DNA from: a virus
Taxonomy: Duplodnaviria; Caudoviricetes
IMG/VR virus record: IMGVR_UViG_3300036976_000011
Span: 26,408-90,407 of that record
Length of the DNA stretch: 64,000 nucleotides
Direction: 5' to 3' (one strand)
Part shown: in pieces, positions 4,888 through 24,401 of the stretch
How the letters are laid out: every line of letters begins with the position of its first letter
Numbering within the stretch: the first letter of the stretch is position 1
Program-made: the position numbers and the translations under genes
Notes under the pieces: model-generated
The model's database searches: none
The model's input: the letters and a program-made list of their open reading frames with translations, nothing else
Told to the model about the DNA's origin: nothing

Positions 4888-5590
4888 CGAGCCACCCCGC
4901 GAATTTTTCCCTAGACCACGGATTGTCCATCCAGGACGTGTCGGGGAGGGGGAGTTGTAGGCACTCACGGACGGTCAAGAGCCGCTCAACCGGCTCCCAG
5001 TTGTCTTTGCCCTTCTTTGAAATCCAACGTATCTGGGACGCGCTTTCGATATTCAGCGCCACGTCTAGCGTCAAGCGAGCGTCCTGCTCGCAGTATGCCA
5101 GGACGCGCTCTTGATCCTCGCGTGTTCCGAGCCAATCCGACGCGGCCTTGCTACCATCCATGCCCTCTGTCTTGCTGCCTAGGCCAAAGCCTTTGGCGAG
5201 GGCGTTCAGGCCAACGGGAAAGCCGCGCTGGCAGAACATTTGGAAGCAAGGGTCATAGTGGTCAAGGGCCAATCCGCGCAGATTTCTATAGATATCTGTG
5301 TCCCTGCACTCCTCAGCCATCACGCGCAGGTCAAAGCCCGCAGAGTTGATACCAACAACTTTAAAACCGGCACAGGCGTAGCTCATCAGGTCAATGGCGA
5401 GGGCGCGCACGTCGCTACCCTCCATGCGTAAAGCGTAACTCCCATTGGGCTGAACTGAGCCACAGTAGTGCCTGGGATCGTTGCCCTCAGCCTGAAAGAC
5501 CGTACAGGTGATTCCGAGGGCATAATTGCCCTCATGCGCACTTGGCGGGGCCTGCGCGGTCTCGATGTCGAAAGCTAGCCATTTACTCAT
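4880..5590 (-). CDS. DEDD 3'-5' exonuclease (RNase H-like, PolB/YprB-type)
   Basis: ExoI AFDIET, ExoII GINSAGFD, ExoIII YCEQD. Confidence 0.85.
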   Translation of the reverse strand: MSKWLAFDIETAQAPPSAHEGNYALGITCTVFQAEGNDPRHYCGSVQPNGSYALRMEGSDVRALAIDLMSYACAGFKVVGINSAGFDLRVMAEECRDTDIYRNLRGLALDHYDPCFQMFCQRGFPVGLNALAKGFGLGSKTEGMDGSKAASDWLGTREDQERVLAYCEQDARLTLDVALNIESASQIRWISKKGKDNWEPVERLLTVRECLQLPLPDTSWMDNPWSREKFAGWLDE

Positions 5591-12792: not shown

Positions 12793-13017
12793 GGTATCTC
12801 CTATTTGGCGTCAAATCCCATCGTATCTCATAGTCATCCGTCTCGGCTTTATCCGCGCATTCGGTCCAGTCTTGCACTTCAATATCACCATTTTTTTTCT
12901 GTGGCTCGCAAGTGACAGACGCGAATTTGATATGGTGTCGTCACGCGCCATTTAGACCGGTCGTTGCTCAGGCGATAGACCGGCATAGGATGATACTCAA
13001 ATCCACAATAGTGACAC

Positions 13018-13483
13018 TTATCCATGCTTGCACCTACCTTCTAGCCCACTTCTACAATACCATCCCAAATGGCCGCTGTCCACGTAGCCCAACTCGTGCA
13101 ACAGCGGCCATAGTATATCAATGGTGTGTCGGTGCATCATATCAAATTTCTCTCGACACGCTACGGATGATAGCCATTTCACGAATGTAGTGTCCCGGCA
13201 TAGACTCACCGCGCCAGTGCTCCGGGCGGTGAGGGTTGCACTCATAGTGGTGCTGAAGGGCTTGGCGGAAATTGACCTCATCCTGCTCTAATGGTTCAGC
13301 GCCGGTCAGGCGTGGGATGGTGAATTTGATGATGTAGAACGGCTGTTCCTGTGGACTGTATTTGCTCAGGTCGTGAATTCTGGCCTGCAGTTCAGGTACA
13401 CCCAACTCGCGGCACTGTTGCGCGACTAGTTCACGGTGTTGCTCCACTCGCTCTCTGTATGCCTGTACGTAGATATGATTCAT
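13018..13483 (-). pseudogene. DUF5662-like HD-type protein, apparently split across two frames
   Basis: HDLSK, HHY..NPHRPEHW..MP.HYIREM in 13142..13483; the expected C-terminal part (WL..MMHRHT..L..LGY) lies in frame 13018..13281. Confidence 0.45.
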
Positions 13484-13791
13484 TCTACCATCCCCAACGT
13501 CTCAGGGTCTAGCGTAATTAGCCCATGTGTCAGCTTGAAATCCTCAGCGCGGACTGCGACTACGGGGGTGAATTGGGCAAGGGCGGTGACGGTGCGCCCT
13601 TGCATGAGTCGTATAAATTGCCCCGTGTCGAGTTCGACACGGAACATGATCACCCCGCACTCGAACAGCAGGGTCATGGTTGATTGAGGCGTACCCGCGT
13701 TCTCATCTTTGTGTTCCTGTAGTCGCATGGTGACGTCGGCGGGGTCTTGGTTGATCTCGACCATTTCATCGTCAATTTCTATTTCCCACAT
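13480..13791 (-). CDS. hypothetical protein
   Basis: ATGA-type coupling with downstream gene. Confidence 0.5.
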   Translation of the reverse strand: MWEIEIDDEMVEINQDPADVTMRLQEHKDENAGTPQSTMTLLFECGVIMFRVELDTGQFIRLMQGRTVTALAQFTPVVAVRAEDFKLTHGLITLDPETLGMVE

Positions 13792-13795
13792 TGGT

Positions 13796-14767
13796 TCACC
13801 TCGCTACGCGTGCCCCCTGGTGATACTTGGCCGGCATTTCTCTCCACGCCACGCCATCCAGGTGGTGTCCGGCATGGGCTTTGCCGACGCGATACATCTC
13901 AGGCCAGCCGTCGCGCTGGTAAGTCCTTGACGCGGAAACCGGCATAATTTCATCAATAGTTTCCTGCGGCATGTTTACGGAATCTACCCATGCCCCCCAC
14001 TGCTTGAAAAAGTACTTAGTTCCGTTCGCCTGACATTGGTCCCGTAGACTTCGCGCCCAGTCAGGATGCATGGGGCGTGCGCCGAGGCCTGTCTCACCGC
14101 CAACAATCACGAGAGAAATTGCCCGACGCTCCGCTTTGCCAATATTCTCCCACTGCTCAGTATTACAGCAGTCGCAAAAAGAGCTACCATGTTGCCAATC
14201 GCGGCAGTTGGGACACCGCCACTGTTGCAGGTATGGTTCCAGGTCAATCTCAGACAACAGCGGTTCACAACTCACAAACCGCACTGCCGCTGGCGTCTGC
14301 AAAAGGAGCGGTATACGCTCGTCGGCGGCTTTCTGGTTCTCGATGGTGACGCCGAGCCACAGATTAGGATAGGCCGCCTCTTTGGCATGACGCCACAAAT
14401 ATGCCATGCGCTTGGGGCGCTTGGTCAGGATTTGAAATGTGTGCTGTGGACACTTTGCGATAATGGCGAGTACGTCAAAAATGAACGCATCAGGCACGTC
14501 ATCGTGAAACAAATCTCCCATAAACTGCACCCCAATCCGCGCTGGCTTCTTACGCCTTAGCGGTTTCTCAAGCCGGTCCTCAACCAACAGCGGCGGAATC
14601 TCGCCAGCGTAGGCCGCACGTTCATCGTCGGATATTTTTGGATTGCCAGCCAGTCGATTCGCCATGCGCAAGTGCCAGCAGTTGTCACAGCCTGCGGAAA
14701 TCGGCTGGCAGCGCATGACGATTGGATTCCAGCTAAAATCCATGTATTCTATGCCTGTCTTGTTCAT
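13796..14767 (-). CDS. phage Gp37/Gp68 (DUF5131) radical-SAM-like protein
   Basis: TGIEY..FSWNP..C..ISAGCDNC, MGDLFH, FQILTKRP, RFVSCEPLL, IVGGETG, FFKQWG. Confidence 0.9.
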   Translation of the reverse strand: MNKTGIEYMDFSWNPIVMRCQPISAGCDNCWHLRMANRLAGNPKISDDERAAYAGEIPPLLVEDRLEKPLRRKKPARIGVQFMGDLFHDDVPDAFIFDVLAIIAKCPQHTFQILTKRPKRMAYLWRHAKEAAYPNLWLGVTIENQKAADERIPLLLQTPAAVRFVSCEPLLSEIDLEPYLQQWRCPNCRDWQHGSSFCDCCNTEQWENIGKAERRAISLVIVGGETGLGARPMHPDWARSLRDQCQANGTKYFFKQWGAWVDSVNMPQETIDEIMPVSASRTYQRDGWPEMYRVGKAHAGHHLDGVAWREMPAKYHQGARVAR

Positions 14768-14905
14768 GTCAGATTCTCTCCTCAAGCAAATCCCTAACTG
14801 CCTCTTTCGCCTCATCGGCCTCTAATCCAAGCGTCCAGAATAGCACAAAGGCGCGGTCAAGCTGTTCATGCTTCAGATATTTTTGAATCTGGTCAACTAT
14901 CTCTA

Positions 14906-14996
14906 CGGTCCACCCTCGCGCCCACGGGGGAACCGAGAGACCGTAGTCTCTGGCGATTACCTGGTCACGGTCCACCCTCGCGCCCACGGGGGAACC
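14906..14996 (-). CRISPR. CRISPR mini-array: two identical 29-nt type I-E-like repeats and one 33-nt spacer
   Basis: Repeat GGTTCCCCCGTGGGCGCGAGGGTGGACCG at 14906-14934 and 14968-14996 (period 62); palindromic core and 8-nt 3' handle GTGGACCG as in I-E repeats; spacer TGACCAGGTAATCGCCAGAGACTACGGTCTCTC. Confidence 0.8.
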
Positions 14997-15163
14997 ACTA
15001 GGAATTTCCCGTGTAATGATTTCCCCGCGTGCATAGGGTTTTTAATGTCCAGTGTCCTCTCTGTGGCCCTCCCGTATTTTTCAACGGTACGACATCCACA
15101 GTCTTAGACACATTCACATTAAATTTGCAGACAATTGTCTCAGATGATCCGCTCTGACTCCGG

Positions 15164-16645
15164 CTAGCCGAAGCTGGAAGGCTTGTGCCTGCCATTTGCA
15201 GATTTAGCATCCCTAAACGCCATCTGTAGGAGCGGACCCGCACCCGACCAGCTTTCTTTCGCGTGGTCCGCGTTTAGGGTATCATTCTCGACACATCTTG
15301 CTAGAAATGCCGAGTAAAGATCACGTTGAGCCTCTATGCCACATTCGCACTCGTGCCAACGTTGCGACAGAGGTTTTTTCTCTATCGTGCCGCAGCCGTG
15401 GCATATCTGGCTCAGTCTGGTACGATACGTCGAAAACTCCTCGACCCGACCGCCCGCGCCCTCAGTCTTGCGTCGCAACATCTCAACGAACGTACCCGGT
15501 GCGCGCTTCCCGACCGATCTACCATACTGGCGCTGAAAGGCCCGGTAGGACAACTTTTCGGTCTTGACAACGTTGCCCATCCCAAGCACGCGGTTGGCAA
15601 GCCGGCCGTGCAGGCTCTTGCGGTACTCGGCCTGCCGGCGCTGCAACTCGGCCAGTTTCGCTTCCGTCTTGAGCATACGTTTGGACTTGTTGCGTGGTCT
15701 CTTGTCCTTGATGGCGCGCCCCTTTTCGTCGTAGCAGTCGGGGTTATTGGCACGCCGTTGTCGGTCCAACTTGCGCTGCAAAATCCGTATCTCGTGCTCG
15801 ATGTCCTCAAGCTCTGCGCAGAATTGGACCAGAAAGGCGTCGTCCTCGCCTACTACTGCGACGGTGGACGGCCCAATGTCTAGGCCGACGACAGCGCCGT
15901 CAACTGTGGGATGTCGTTGTAGGGGATGGCCCTCTAGCACCAACTGGGCGTAGAACCGGTTGCGCCCGCTGATGACCTTGAGGATGATGCGCACGTATTT
16001 GACCCGACAACCGAGGCCGTGGGCGTGGGTTGGGTCGTCCCGGTCCACGACGGCGGGTATTTCCAGGTCGCGCCACTGAACGTAATTGCCCTTGTCCCGC
16101 CAGCGCAAGCCCTGCAAGTTGGTGATGTTCTCCACGCTGCGCACCTGGCCGTACCGTTTGAATCTTGGCTTGCCGCAAAGGTCGCAGCGCCGGGTCTCTT
16201 TGGGTTTCTTGCACCTTCGACCATTCTTGCACGGCCTGTCGGTCCCAAACCGGTAACGGTTGACGCTCGTCCAAACACGAGCCGTAACAGCCTTGACCTC
16301 TTGGCTGCCCAGGTGGTCACGAATCCAGGAGTGTGTAAACTGTGTCGCCCAACTCATCAAATCGTATTTGCGTATGCCCACGGCTGCATCCGCTTGACGA
16401 AAGGCTTCTACCCGCGCCTTGTATTGTGCTTTTTGAGTAACCGTGGCGTCTTTCCCGTTTCTGCCCCTGGGCATCTTGCAGGCACGTCGGAAAGCCTTGG
16501 ACTCGCGCAACAACTTCAACCGCTTCAGGCCCTCGCCCAATACGGCGTTGTGAACCTGGCGGGCGGTCTCAAAGCGCACCAGGAGTTTTTTTTCCTGACA
16601 CGGCGTTGTCTTTAATGGCAATTCTAAAATAAATGTCTTGCTCAT
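15164..16645 (-). CDS. tnpB: TnpB-family RNA-guided endonuclease (IS200/IS605 OrfB / Cas12f-like)
   Basis: RuvC-I VGLDIG, RuvC-II KTEKL, zinc ribbon CHGC..CEC, RuvC-III QRDLYSA (D-E-D intact); no tnpA nearby. Confidence 0.9.
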   Translation of the reverse strand: MSKTFILELPLKTTPCQEKKLLVRFETARQVHNAVLGEGLKRLKLLRESKAFRRACKMPRGRNGKDATVTQKAQYKARVEAFRQADAAVGIRKYDLMSWATQFTHSWIRDHLGSQEVKAVTARVWTSVNRYRFGTDRPCKNGRRCKKPKETRRCDLCGKPRFKRYGQVRSVENITNLQGLRWRDKGNYVQWRDLEIPAVVDRDDPTHAHGLGCRVKYVRIILKVISGRNRFYAQLVLEGHPLQRHPTVDGAVVGLDIGPSTVAVVGEDDAFLVQFCAELEDIEHEIRILQRKLDRQRRANNPDCYDEKGRAIKDKRPRNKSKRMLKTEAKLAELQRRQAEYRKSLHGRLANRVLGMGNVVKTEKLSYRAFQRQYGRSVGKRAPGTFVEMLRRKTEGAGGRVEEFSTYRTRLSQICHGCGTIEKKPLSQRWHECECGIEAQRDLYSAFLARCVENDTLNADHAKESWSGAGPLLQMAFRDAKSANGRHKPSSFG

Positions 16646-16649
16646 TCTC

Positions 16650-16705
16650 TGGCCTAACAAAAAACCAACCCCGTCGGTGCTTGTTCCTGTCACAGAGTCA
16701 AGCCG
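16650..16705 (-). terminator. intrinsic terminator-like hairpin upstream of tnpB start
   Basis: CCAACCCCG/CGGGGTTGG 9-bp stem followed by TTTTTTG. Confidence 0.5.
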
Positions 16706-16783
16706 GGGTTGGCTAGCATCGCCAGTCTGGCGCTATGCCTAAAAAACAAAAAGCTCCGACCTGACTAACTCTGTGACGATTCT

Positions 16784-16812
16784 ATCGTATCATGGTTCAA
16801 GCATAGTGTCAA
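16784..16812 (-). promoter_or_regulatory. sigma70-type promoter upstream of tnpB leader
   Basis: TTGACA-17 nt-TACGAT with TG extended -10. Confidence 0.6.
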
Positions 16813-16902
16813 GCGGATCACCCTTCCCGCTTCAATCGTTTGGTGCGCAGTGCCCCTATCATACTCCCACTACGGCGATATGCAAGCCGCACAGCGTCAA
16901 AG

Positions 16903-17217
16903 CTATGCTAATTCCCACCTGCCCCGCTCTGGATTGACAACATGCCCCTTCTTTTTCGCCAGTGACAGGGCTGACCGCGTGTGCGGCAGTGATATCCCCA
17001 TGTGCGCCGCTATTCCCGCTGGCGTATGTCGTCCGTCACGGATAGCGGTAAGAATGGCTTCGCGGCGCATGGGCTTGCGCCCGTCTTTGGTGCTAGGGCA
17101 GCGCCCGACGAGAGGATACCAGCGGTATGAAGTATCACGATTGCGCTCCCTGCGCTGCATGACGGCGCAAAAGACACAACGGCGATACACGCCTTCCAGT
17201 CTCCACTTATGGGCCAT
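16903..17217 (-). CDS. Cys-motif plus C-terminal winged-HTH protein
   Basis: CVFC..C; AILTAIRDG..TPAGIAAHMGIS...RSALS..KKKGHV. Confidence 0.5.
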   Translation of the reverse strand: MAHKWRLEGVYRRCVFCAVMQRRERNRDTSYRWYPLVGRCPSTKDGRKPMRREAILTAIRDGRHTPAGIAAHMGISLPHTRSALSLAKKKGHVVNPERGRWELA

Positions 17218-22297: not shown

Positions 22298-22371
22298 TGG
22301 GACCGGCAGAAGTCGAATCTGCAACCTCTTGAGTCTAAGTCAAGCGCCTCTACCAATTGGGCTACGGTCCC
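22298..22371 (-). tRNA. tRNA with TAG (Leu) anticodon but class I short variable loop
   Basis: GGGACCG/CGGTCCC-A, CTTGA-CTTAGAC-TCAAG, 5-nt variable loop AGGTT, GCAGA-TTCGACT-TCTGC. Confidence 0.8.
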
Positions 22372-22826: not shown

Positions 22827-22901
22827 TGGACGCAGCCAGATTCGAACTGGCGACTTCTGCATTTTCAGTGCAGCGCAACTACCAGGCTGTGCTATGCGTC
22901 C
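22827..22901 (-). tRNA. tRNA-Phe(GAA)
   Basis: GGACGCA/TGCGTCC-A, CTGCA-CTGAAAA-TGCAG, GCCAG-TTCGAAT-CTGGC; CCA not encoded. Confidence 0.9.
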
Positions 22902-22909
22902 AAGTTGCC

Positions 22910-23056
22910 GGCGGCTTGAGAATTGGTAGTATTTTGACCGCCTTCAGTATGACGACAGCGGCAGGCGTCCAATTGTTAACGATGTAGTTATCACACACCG
23001 GTCATTTTCGCCGCCTGGTTCGCCAAGCCCGCAATACTACCAATTCTCAAGCCGCC
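22910..23056. repeat. 24-bp perfect inverted repeat enclosing 99 nt
   Basis: ggcggcttgagaattggtagtatt (22910-22933) / aatactaccaattctcaagccgcc (23033-23056). Confidence 0.9.
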
Positions 23057-24315
23057 TCCTCACGATCCACGAAATCTTCACTGTCTTTTAGGTAGCCCTC
23101 TAACAAGCCAAAGGTAAATGACTTGTGTTTGTAGAAGTGCGTACCGTGTTCATTGTCAACTCGAATAGCCACACCTTCACGGATATGGCTACTATCTAGC
23201 ACAGAAGGCCCGTCAATATAGCTCTCAATTACGGCGCGCAACCCTCTACCATCCAGGGTATGAAAACGCTGACTATACTCCGGTACATGATCAATGCCAA
23301 GCTCATCGCAGCGTCGTTTTACATCGCGCCACGGGAGCTCAAATTGCACACCGTCCTCGTTTGCCTGCACGATACGATAGACAAATGCCTTGCACTCCCC
23401 AGGTTCACAGCCGTAGGAATATATCATCTCGTCACCGTAGCTCTTTTTGACATCCCCGTCACGGAGCTTGCTGATGTTTTGCGGTTGCATAATGGGCTCG
23501 TTTTGGCCAGCCCATCCGACAATCTCCATATAGACGACTTCGCCTTTGTGGAGATTGTTTTGTAGTCTTTCGACGGCCCTGTAACGAAAACCGTCGTTGC
23601 TATAATAAGTTGCGCCGTCATGGTGCTCAAGAATTACACGCCGCGTACCAGACAAATAGCGCCAAGCCATTTTGTGACTAAATCGAGCGCCAAATCTATT
23701 CAGTGCTCGTTTCCACCACGGCAGCGGCATCTTATCCAGCACATGACCAAGTCGGTGACTCGTGCCGTGCAATTTTTCCGTGATCGTTATGAGTGATTCT
23801 GGCGGTATAATATCTGCTGCATCTCTGAACTGGTCAGTTTTAATGTGCATTCTAAACATGGTAGTTTCACGGCGATGTTTGATACTGCGCTGGCGCGCAT
23901 GTCGCGTGGCTCTAGTGACATACTTATTACAAATTGGTACGCCATTAAGGCTATCAAACTCATCGCCTATCTTGAGCCTATCAAGATCATGACCTGTAAA
24001 TTCAAAGTATGACAGCGGCGCAAGAAACCCTTCGCTCTTTGCGCCACGGAATTTCTGTGCGCGCACGCGACGATTAGCTTCAAAAAAGCCACCCTCTTTT
24101 GCTCCCGTCTCTGGATTTGTGCGCCGAACTAGGTCATTGGATTGTGCAAATTGCTCGCTTAGTTGACCATCGGATCGAAAAAACACCATCAAGTCACCGT
24201 CTTGCGTATTCAGACCAACAACGACTTGATAGCCTAGTGCTGTGGCTAATTTTAGTCTGTCAGCATCTGGATGGGGTCGCGTATAGACTTTGACAACTTT
24301 GGCTTTGTAGGTCAT
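23047..24315 (-). CDS. ATP-dependent RNA ligase (DRB0094/Rnl5- or Rnl2-like)
   Basis: N-terminal HPDADRL domain, motif I TEKLHGTS, VYMEIVG, FVYRI, REGVAIR, YKHKS; start MTYKAK at 24315 after GAGGTGG RBS. Confidence 0.9.
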   Translation of the reverse strand: MTYKAKVVKVYTRPHPDADRLKLATALGYQVVVGLNTQDGDLMVFFRSDGQLSEQFAQSNDLVRRTNPETGAKEGGFFEANRRVRAQKFRGAKSEGFLAPLSYFEFTGHDLDRLKIGDEFDSLNGVPICNKYVTRATRHARQRSIKHRRETTMFRMHIKTDQFRDAADIIPPESLITITEKLHGTSHRLGHVLDKMPLPWWKRALNRFGARFSHKMAWRYLSGTRRVILEHHDGATYYSNDGFRYRAVERLQNNLHKGEVVYMEIVGWAGQNEPIMQPQNISKLRDGDVKKSYGDEMIYSYGCEPGECKAFVYRIVQANEDGVQFELPWRDVKRRCDELGIDHVPEYSQRFHTLDGRGLRAVIESYIDGPSVLDSSHIREGVAIRVDNEHGTHFYKHKSFTFGLLEGYLKDSEDFVDREEAA

Positions 24316-24342
24316 TTTTTCCACCTCTGAATAAGCATTCTC

Positions 24343-24401
24343 GCCGGTTATTATTCTCTGCCGACCGGCGGCGGCGCATCTTCTACTCACACTAGTGGAC
24401 C
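24343..24401. repeat. 59-bp exact direct repeat, copy 2
   Basis: Identical to 22620-22678. Confidence 0.95.

Follow-up and report, generated by a model that had tools for sequence, protein, structure and literature searches.

The CRISPR mini-array in this 64,000-nt stretch of phage DNA (the window) is probably the one-spacer guide store of the TnpB-derived, type V-like nuclease (TranC/Cas12r-like) encoded upstream of it, and was probably fed by the type I-E adaptation machinery of the host. Because the repeat pair lies directly behind a TnpB/Cas12-like gene and a guide-RNA scaffold, the array is most likely the nuclease's own. Several observations support this reading, namely the anatomy of the locus, a conserved scaffold, the linkage of nuclease, scaffold and array across the clade, the varied spacers, the intact catalytic residues and the loss of transposon hallmarks. 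Among the points that count against it, the collections searched gave no protospacer, the array is minimal, with no turnover visible within this phage itself, and its I-E-like repeats would suit host Cas6e and Cascade equally.

The initial annotation had put forward three leading readings, in which the array serves host Cascade, guides the type IV-B complex of the phage or acts as a decoy. Beyond the likeness of the repeat we found no positive evidence for any of these, and the nuclease, the scaffold and the clade-wide layout point elsewhere. Our analysis recasts the feature: instead of an orphan I-E array dependent on a borrowed distant or host effector, it is likely the guide store of the adjoining RNA-guided nuclease, which is compact (493 aa).

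Anatomy of the locus

The features of the locus, in the direction of transcription, are as follows.

16784..16812 (-): sigma-70-like promoter before the nuclease gene (TTGACA, 17 nt, TACGAT with TG)
15164..16645 (-): TnpB-family RNA-guided nuclease gene, 493 aa in the record; the open frame extends to 16693
15017..15163 (-): omegaRNA-like scaffold, 147 nt, beginning immediately behind the stop codon; its last element is the terminal C-run/G-run hairpin of the family
14997..15016 (-): linker, 20 nt, in the position of the guide (flank) in IS-type relatives
14968..14996 (-): repeat 1, nuclease-proximal, 29 nt
14935..14967 (-): spacer, 33 nt, unique; its 3' half contains a 6-bp hairpin
14906..14934 (-): repeat 2, 29 nt, with the same letters as repeat 1
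14890..14905 (-): trailer, 16 nt directly after repeat 2, a possible extra guide

The 29-nt unit has two exact matches on the minus strand, against none expected (100 shuffles). Repeat identity reaches 30 nt if the next T is included, and the start-to-start distance of 62 nt can accordingly be read as 29 + 33 or 30 + 32. Every long open reading frame (ORF) of the window runs on the minus strand, so the orientation of the array agrees with local transcription. The exact matches and the ORF strands bear out the initial description of two identical 29-nt repeats with a 33-nt spacer, oriented along local transcription, and the AGAGAC/GTCTCT hairpin described within the spacer is likewise present. 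With at least two near-identical repeats in the range of 23–55 nt, the locus is a CRISPR array in the generic sense (which also calls for spacers of similar length), in the minimal case of one spacer. A genome-wide periodic-repeat scan identified the pair as the sole CRISPR-like or periodic pair in the phage genome, a complete virus record of 90,407 bp with direct terminal repeats.

As RNA, the repeat is predicted to form a hairpin across nearly its full length (-15.2 kcal/mol, z -1.65), interrupted by one bulged A and one bulged U. It has the marks of a type I-E repeat: a length of 29 nt, a C-run/G-run stem, a 3' end in ...GTGGACCG, an 8-nt handle ending in ACCG and a period of 61–62 nt. It is identical at 19 of 29 positions to the repeat of a genuine I-E array in an Anaerolineae genome (G002) and has the same ...ACCG handle. 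The exact repeat has no match in IMG/VR, Rfam (including its CRISPR-DR models) returned no family over 14850-15250 even at E 10, and a gapped repeat pattern found single chance-level matches and no array across 401 sampled Chloroflexota genomes. In GenBank phages, 13000-17000 had no match by megablast, and a protein-based scan of IMG/VR gave no close relative. The complete phage genome, searched for Cas6e (PF08798) and I-E Cas1 (PF01867), matched neither, so the array shares its genome with no I-E cas genes and any I-E function must come from the host.

The gene upstream encodes a nuclease of the TnpB family (Pfam PF07282, E 2.7e-8; PHROG 506, E 5e-50), which matches the NCBIfam guided_TnpB model at E 5e-26 and 91.8 bits, just below the curated cut-off of 100. 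Cas12u2 was its best defence-model match in PADLOC (E 1e-18), where Cas12f models matched as well. The RuvC D/E/D triad and the CxxC..HxCxC zinc ribbon are kept. The gene stops at 15164, and repeat 1 follows about 167–168 nt farther downstream on the same strand. Homologues number in the thousands, are about 500–540 aa long and mostly behave as IS200/IS605 elements. The locus in the window has the RuvC D-E-D residues, the zinc ribbon and the omegaRNA scaffold of such elements, and lacks their mobile unit (TnpA, ends and copies): the phage has no Y1 TnpA, no left-end hairpin or TTAC junction of the kind seen in IS copies is recognisable before the nuclease gene, and the element is present in a single copy in the phage genome.

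The promoter in front of the gene is weak evidence alone, one site having been found in a scan with 1.2 expected by chance; near-consensus promoters are placed alike in two relatives (L168 and L006). In a separate study's wetland metatranscriptome, contigs 100% identical to parts of the nuclease gene, and not reaching the scaffold or array, give a weak hint that the gene is expressed, with DNA carry-over also possible.

Between gene and array, the sequence can be aligned to the right-end RNA (the omegaRNA region) in more than 20 relatives, IS-type ones included. An RNAalifold consensus of 24 sequences contains 19 pairs, of which 15 show compensatory double changes. The linker measures 14–33 nt in array-bearing relatives and is absent in one (L170), in which the terminal hairpin of the scaffold is itself the first repeat. 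The tail of the scaffold also co-varies with the repeat of its own locus: mean duplex energy was -24.7 kcal/mol for own pairs versus -19.8 kcal/mol for cross pairs, only 4 of 720 permutations were as good, and L168 has a perfect 10-nt complement between scaffold tail and repeat. This pattern fits pairing between the two, as by the anti-repeat of a tracr-like type V or TranC scaffold, and common descent of two homologous palindromic hairpins equally well.

Arrays, spacers and losses in related loci

Among the closest homologues, every locus that is long enough has the order gene, scaffold, array. L168 (76% identity) has one 33-nt spacer, unrelated to that of the window, between two identical 29-nt repeats; L169 (66%) and L170 (59%) have three repeats each, so that these closest relatives carry 1–2 spacers, L091 and L092 (53%) have eight that are degenerate, and L027 (44%), on the Anaerolineae chromosome of G002, has 16. 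Three further contigs (L004, L006 and L007) break off within or exactly at the first repeat. Relatives do, then, carry such arrays, and the initial annotation of a mini-array stands in this respect. Spacers in L168, L169, L170, L091 and L027 differ from that of the window and are 31–34 nt long throughout, and L092 lacks two spacers present in L091; spacers thus differ between related loci, with repeats and layout kept. A TnpB/Cas12-family effector adjoins the array here, and this arrangement, characteristic of type V and TranC loci, is conserved across the clade.

The association is confined to a small part of the family. In a census of 167 homologous loci, 124 with at least 350 nt of downstream sequence have no array and are plain IS200/IS605 elements, and arrays of 29-nt I-E-like repeats behind a scaffold occur in only one clade of nine. 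In the protein tree (159 sequences, built with FastTree only and with long branches for L027, L170 and L006), all array-bearing or repeat-truncated loci fall in this one nine-row clade, with SH-like support of 97, or 100 for the inner six rows. Its sister clade is IS-type, with a Y1 tnpA in front and no arrays. IS-type ends are seen in a Nitrospirota genome with more than 10 IS copies, where the left junction is sharp after TTAC and the right end is sharp directly behind the terminal C-run/G-run hairpin, the sequence beyond differing from copy to copy.

Throughout the array clade the nuclease has lost its C-terminal tail, which in IS copies overlaps the omegaRNA. Zinc-ribbon cysteines are lost in two members (L027 and L006), so not every clade member need be an active nuclease. 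An extra Cys4 insertion (CX5C...CX2C, residues about 137-160) is restricted to the inner array-bearing clade, with a deletion in L004, and may be an extra zinc finger gained together with CRISPR association.

The likeness of the repeat to those of type I-E, proposed initially, held up in length, stem and 3' end, and relatives extend it through their spacer lengths and through G002. A genuine type I-E module of that genome encodes Cas6e and I-E Cas1, and the repeat of the module's array is identical at 25 of 29 positions to the TnpB-linked repeat of L027, 3.4 Mb away.

Several other features of the related loci were noted. The closest relative, L004 (nuclease 87% identical), was considered as the same phage as that of the window and rejected, its two upstream ORFs having no similarity to window ORFs. 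It also holds tandem remnants, in that a second, partial TnpB C-terminus and scaffold copy (L004:780-1046) lies just upstream of the intact gene. Spacer 4 of L091 (4790-4822 / 5291-5323) matches an ORF start 470 nt downstream on the same contig at 29 of 33 positions, the first 15 nt exactly, and is possibly self-directed or regulatory. On the G002 chromosome (e.g., L182-L191), many solitary exact copies of the 29-nt I-E repeat of that genome lie outside arrays and not beside TnpB genes; we rejected the idea that they are TnpB element ends, none of 10 sampled sites having a TnpB-family ORF within 2.5 kb. Upstream of the TnpB-array locus of L027 lies another array with 28-nt repeats (L027:1-330), followed by an RRXRR+HNH (IscB-like) gene (L027:555-1817), such that this chromosome region has two OMEGA-type nucleases with an array beside each.

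Proposed mechanism and comparison with known systems

We propose that promoter, nuclease gene, 147-nt scaffold, 20-nt linker and repeat-spacer-repeat form a single minus-strand transcription unit. The scaffold RNA would bind the nuclease, like the omegaRNA in IS200/IS605 elements. Each repeat would fold into a hairpin built like the terminal hairpin of the scaffold and placed directly 5' of the spacer, so that repeat plus spacer would mimic the "terminal hairpin plus guide" end of an omegaRNA and give a guide of roughly 16–20 nt. This guide could work in cis while still part of the long transcript; alternatively, it could work in trans, within a crRNA that pairs or stacks with the scaffold. 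The RuvC nuclease would then cut, or at least bind, matching DNA of a competitor element. New spacers would be installed by host type I-E Cas1-Cas2, as has been proposed for Cas12r; this source is probable because the repeats are I-E-like, the spacers are 31–34 nt long and the phage has no Cas1.

One of the two nearest described systems, the other being TranC, is the Cas12r-CRISPR system of Thermus "Lalka" phages (Trofimova et al., bioRxiv 10.64898/2026.04.20.719267). There, an array starts 15 bp after a 564-aa ORF, no tracr or scaffold RNA is needed, repeats of 29 bp resemble those of host I-E, spacers are 31–33 nt long, adaptation genes are absent with host I-E Cas1-Cas2 the proposed supplier, and the sequence past the last repeat can also guide (bioRxiv 10.64898/2026.04.20.719267). 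The locus in the window has in common with Cas12r a phage carrier, a TnpB-like nuclease gene with a short array behind it on the same strand, 29-nt I-E-like repeats, spacers of about 32 nt and a lack of adaptation genes. It differs in having a 493-aa ORF with a conserved 147-nt scaffold and a linker before the array, and so lacks the crRNA-only arrangement of Cas12r, in its protein lineage, and in its habitat (wetland here versus hot spring there). In a tblastn search of GenBank phages, matches to Thermus phages were weak with no close homologue among them, and the best phage match had 33% identity. This makes it very likely that the system in the window was recruited separately from Cas12r.

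TranC systems consist of IS605/IS607-derived TnpB-like proteins beside short arrays with an omegaRNA-derived scaffold between, some of them in Caudoviricetes genomes, without adaptation genes of their own and with repeats of 32–38 bp in the tested clades (Jin et al. 2025, via PMC13565253, bioRxiv 10.64898/2026.03.27.714800). TranC resembles the window locus in its TnpB-like effector, in the omegaRNA-derived scaffold kept between gene and array, and in the lack of adaptation genes, whereas the repeats of the window are 29 nt and I-E-like rather than 32–38 bp; the clade may belong to a numbered TranC clade or form a separate one. The solved LaTranC gave a weak sequence match only (E 0.01).

The protein family and the scaffold RNA are those of IS200/IS605 TnpB, and sister loci have tnpA, a left TTAC and a sharp right end, whereas the locus in the window has neither TnpA nor a recognisable left end, occurs once, has a promoter of its own and a shortened C-terminus, and continues into an array where those loci have plain flank. 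Type I-E arrays agree with it in repeat length, hairpin position, 3' end, spacer length and the 61–62-nt period, and differ in that the phage has no I-E cas genes, the stem is bulged and the array is always coupled to a TnpB gene and scaffold. Small TnpB-like effectors also lie beside arrays in type V-U2 (C2c8) and Cas12f systems, and Cas12u2 was the best PADLOC match; however, the NCBIfam model for C2c8 scored 34 bits versus a cut-off of 350, so the nuclease of the window is not a C2c8 member.

If the array belongs to the nuclease, as we think probable, it is a phage-borne example of a transposon nuclease becoming a CRISPR system. The clade ties together IS605 TnpB elements, the origins of type V CRISPR and type I-E adaptation, which are usually studied apart. 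It also offers natural intermediates (IS copies with tnpA, arrays fused to the scaffold, mini-arrays in phages and a chromosomal array of 16 repeats) that make the transition from omegaRNA to CRISPR testable. As a second independent case, after Cas12r, of a phage type V-like system with I-E-style repeats, the locus suggests a recurring route by way of parasitism on host I-E adaptation. Its small size also makes the nuclease interesting as an editing tool.

Targets, alternative readings and the type IV-B region

A search of the spacer against phages and plasmids had been suggested in the initial annotation, and it found no protospacer: the spacer of the window had no match in its own genome, IMG/VR (as 27-mers and 20-mers), GenBank phages or PLSDB (blastn), with chance-level partial matches at most. 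Spacers of L168 and L027 found no protospacer in IMG/VR, nor did relatives' spacers in all fetched loci and the phage genome, and the L027 array matched only other arrays and solitary repeats in its own genome. The collections searched therefore give no target and no PAM.

The trailer matches 15 of 16 positions, the first 11 exactly, at G000:C1:17282-17297 of the same phage, 9.1 kb before the window start, with TTGAC in front. Such a second copy exists for 1.3% of 16-mers in the genome overall and for about 0.5% in ordinary regions, and three candidate guides were tested. The matching site, in the intergenic space between divergent genes and next to a long palindrome, overlaps the -35 of a promoter-like site before a T5orf172/GIY-YIG-like gene; the flanking motif TTGAC differs from the TTAC derived for IS relatives. 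We regard the match as suggestive of a self-directed guide, or as chance. The possibility that the array is a duplicated insertion site was rejected, since its flanks have no homology to G000:C1:16900-17700 beyond the 16-nt trailer match.

A bolder reading takes the clade as a CRISPR system being born. Host I-E Cas1-Cas2 would insert 32–33-nt spacers at the 3' end of the omegaRNA, where the right-end hairpin approximates an I-E repeat (as in L170), and the trailer would add a self-regulatory guide to the phage's own promoter region. We hold this only tentatively and think it rather unlikely in full; if true, a transposon nuclease would have become an adaptive weapon that the phage carries, with no adaptation genes of its own, and one RNA-guided protein would have both a defence guide and a self-regulatory guide.

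The type IV-B genes that bear on one of the alternatives were recovered by PADLOC (E 1e-22 to 2e-81) and NCBIfam in the region 26494..30788.

30000-30788 (-): csf1, type IV-B
29777-30352 (-): cas11, type IV-B
28806-29777 (-): csf2, type IV-B
28115-28855 (-): csf3, type IV-B
26494-27231 (-): cysH-like gene, in the type IV-B region
within 26494..30788 (-): HTH gene and SPOUT methylase gene, in the type IV-B region

In one alternative, host Cas6e would cut the repeats and the crRNA would arm host I-E Cascade-Cas3 against a competitor, with the TnpB gene incidental or an additional user. The I-E length, stem and 3' end of the repeat are in keeping with this, as are the I-E-like spacer lengths (31–34 nt), the sister array in G002 with its 25/29 identity to a genuine I-E repeat there, and a phage that has neither Cas6e nor Cas1 of its own and would leave I-E function to its host. 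We nonetheless judge it unlikely, given that the array always lies behind nuclease and scaffold within one protein clade, that its stem has a bulged A, and that the repeat is unlike any host repeat identified, no such array having been found in the 401 Chloroflexota genomes. The same I-E-like repeats on a phage without I-E cas genes could instead yield transcripts that titrate host I-E Cas6e or Cascade subunits as an RNA anti-CRISPR, like the solitary repeat units of phages, and the hairpin in the spacer, which a guide does not need, would accord with such a decoy. To our knowledge, however, RNA anti-CRISPRs require neither a spacer of canonical length nor a nuclease neighbour, and an inhibitor is a poor fit for relatives' arrays of as many as 16 repeats with varied spacers, found in a cellular genome with an I-E system of its own; we consider a decoy highly improbable.

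Least credible to us is that the array supplies a defined crRNA to the phage's own Csf complex. The type IV-B genes, named in the initial annotation as an array-less effector 11 kb away, are real, as PADLOC and NCBIfam confirmed, and the genome holds no other array. The 11-kb gap, though, contains unrelated genes and tRNAs, the phage has no Cas6-type processing enzyme, and the conserved partner of the array is the TnpB gene: the array neither adjoins nor is co-conserved with csf genes, with no csf within 3 kb in L027 (a bacterial chromosome) and L091. Type IV-B complexes have also been reported to bind heterogeneous RNA. Co-residence in one genome is the sole support for a link between the two, and the array does not solve the problem of what guides type IV-B. 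A different kind of alternative dispenses with function altogether, the TnpB element having entered a phage and its right-end hairpin having undergone a single duplication, through slippage during replication or stray integration by Cas1-Cas2, to leave an inert or decaying remnant. The single spacer, the failure to find a target, the degenerate repeats of L091 and the leftover scaffold adjoining the gene in L004 would accord with decay; against this, the repeats here are 100% identical, the gene is intact with its catalytic residues, the scaffold is conserved with compensatory changes, and arrays persist in independent relatives, where the spacers differ but their length is constant, making a remnant very unlikely.

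Some minor features surround the array. Between it and the IV-B operon, tRNA genes at 22298-22371 and 22827-22901 (-) lie beside an RNA ligase gene at 23047-24390 (-). The gene after the array encodes a DUF5131 protein (phage Gp37/Gp68-like; 13796-14767, -), whose start is likelier at 14767, with a good ribosome-binding site and a Pfam match from residue 3, than at the listed 14815. One base before 14767 ends a 72-codon open frame (14769-14987, -) that begins inside repeat 1 and crosses the spacer and repeat 2. It has no start codon past the array and no Pfam or PHROG family, and we treat it as a chance frame in G+C-rich repeat DNA, although its last 45 residues (the C-terminal part) look helical and protein-like.
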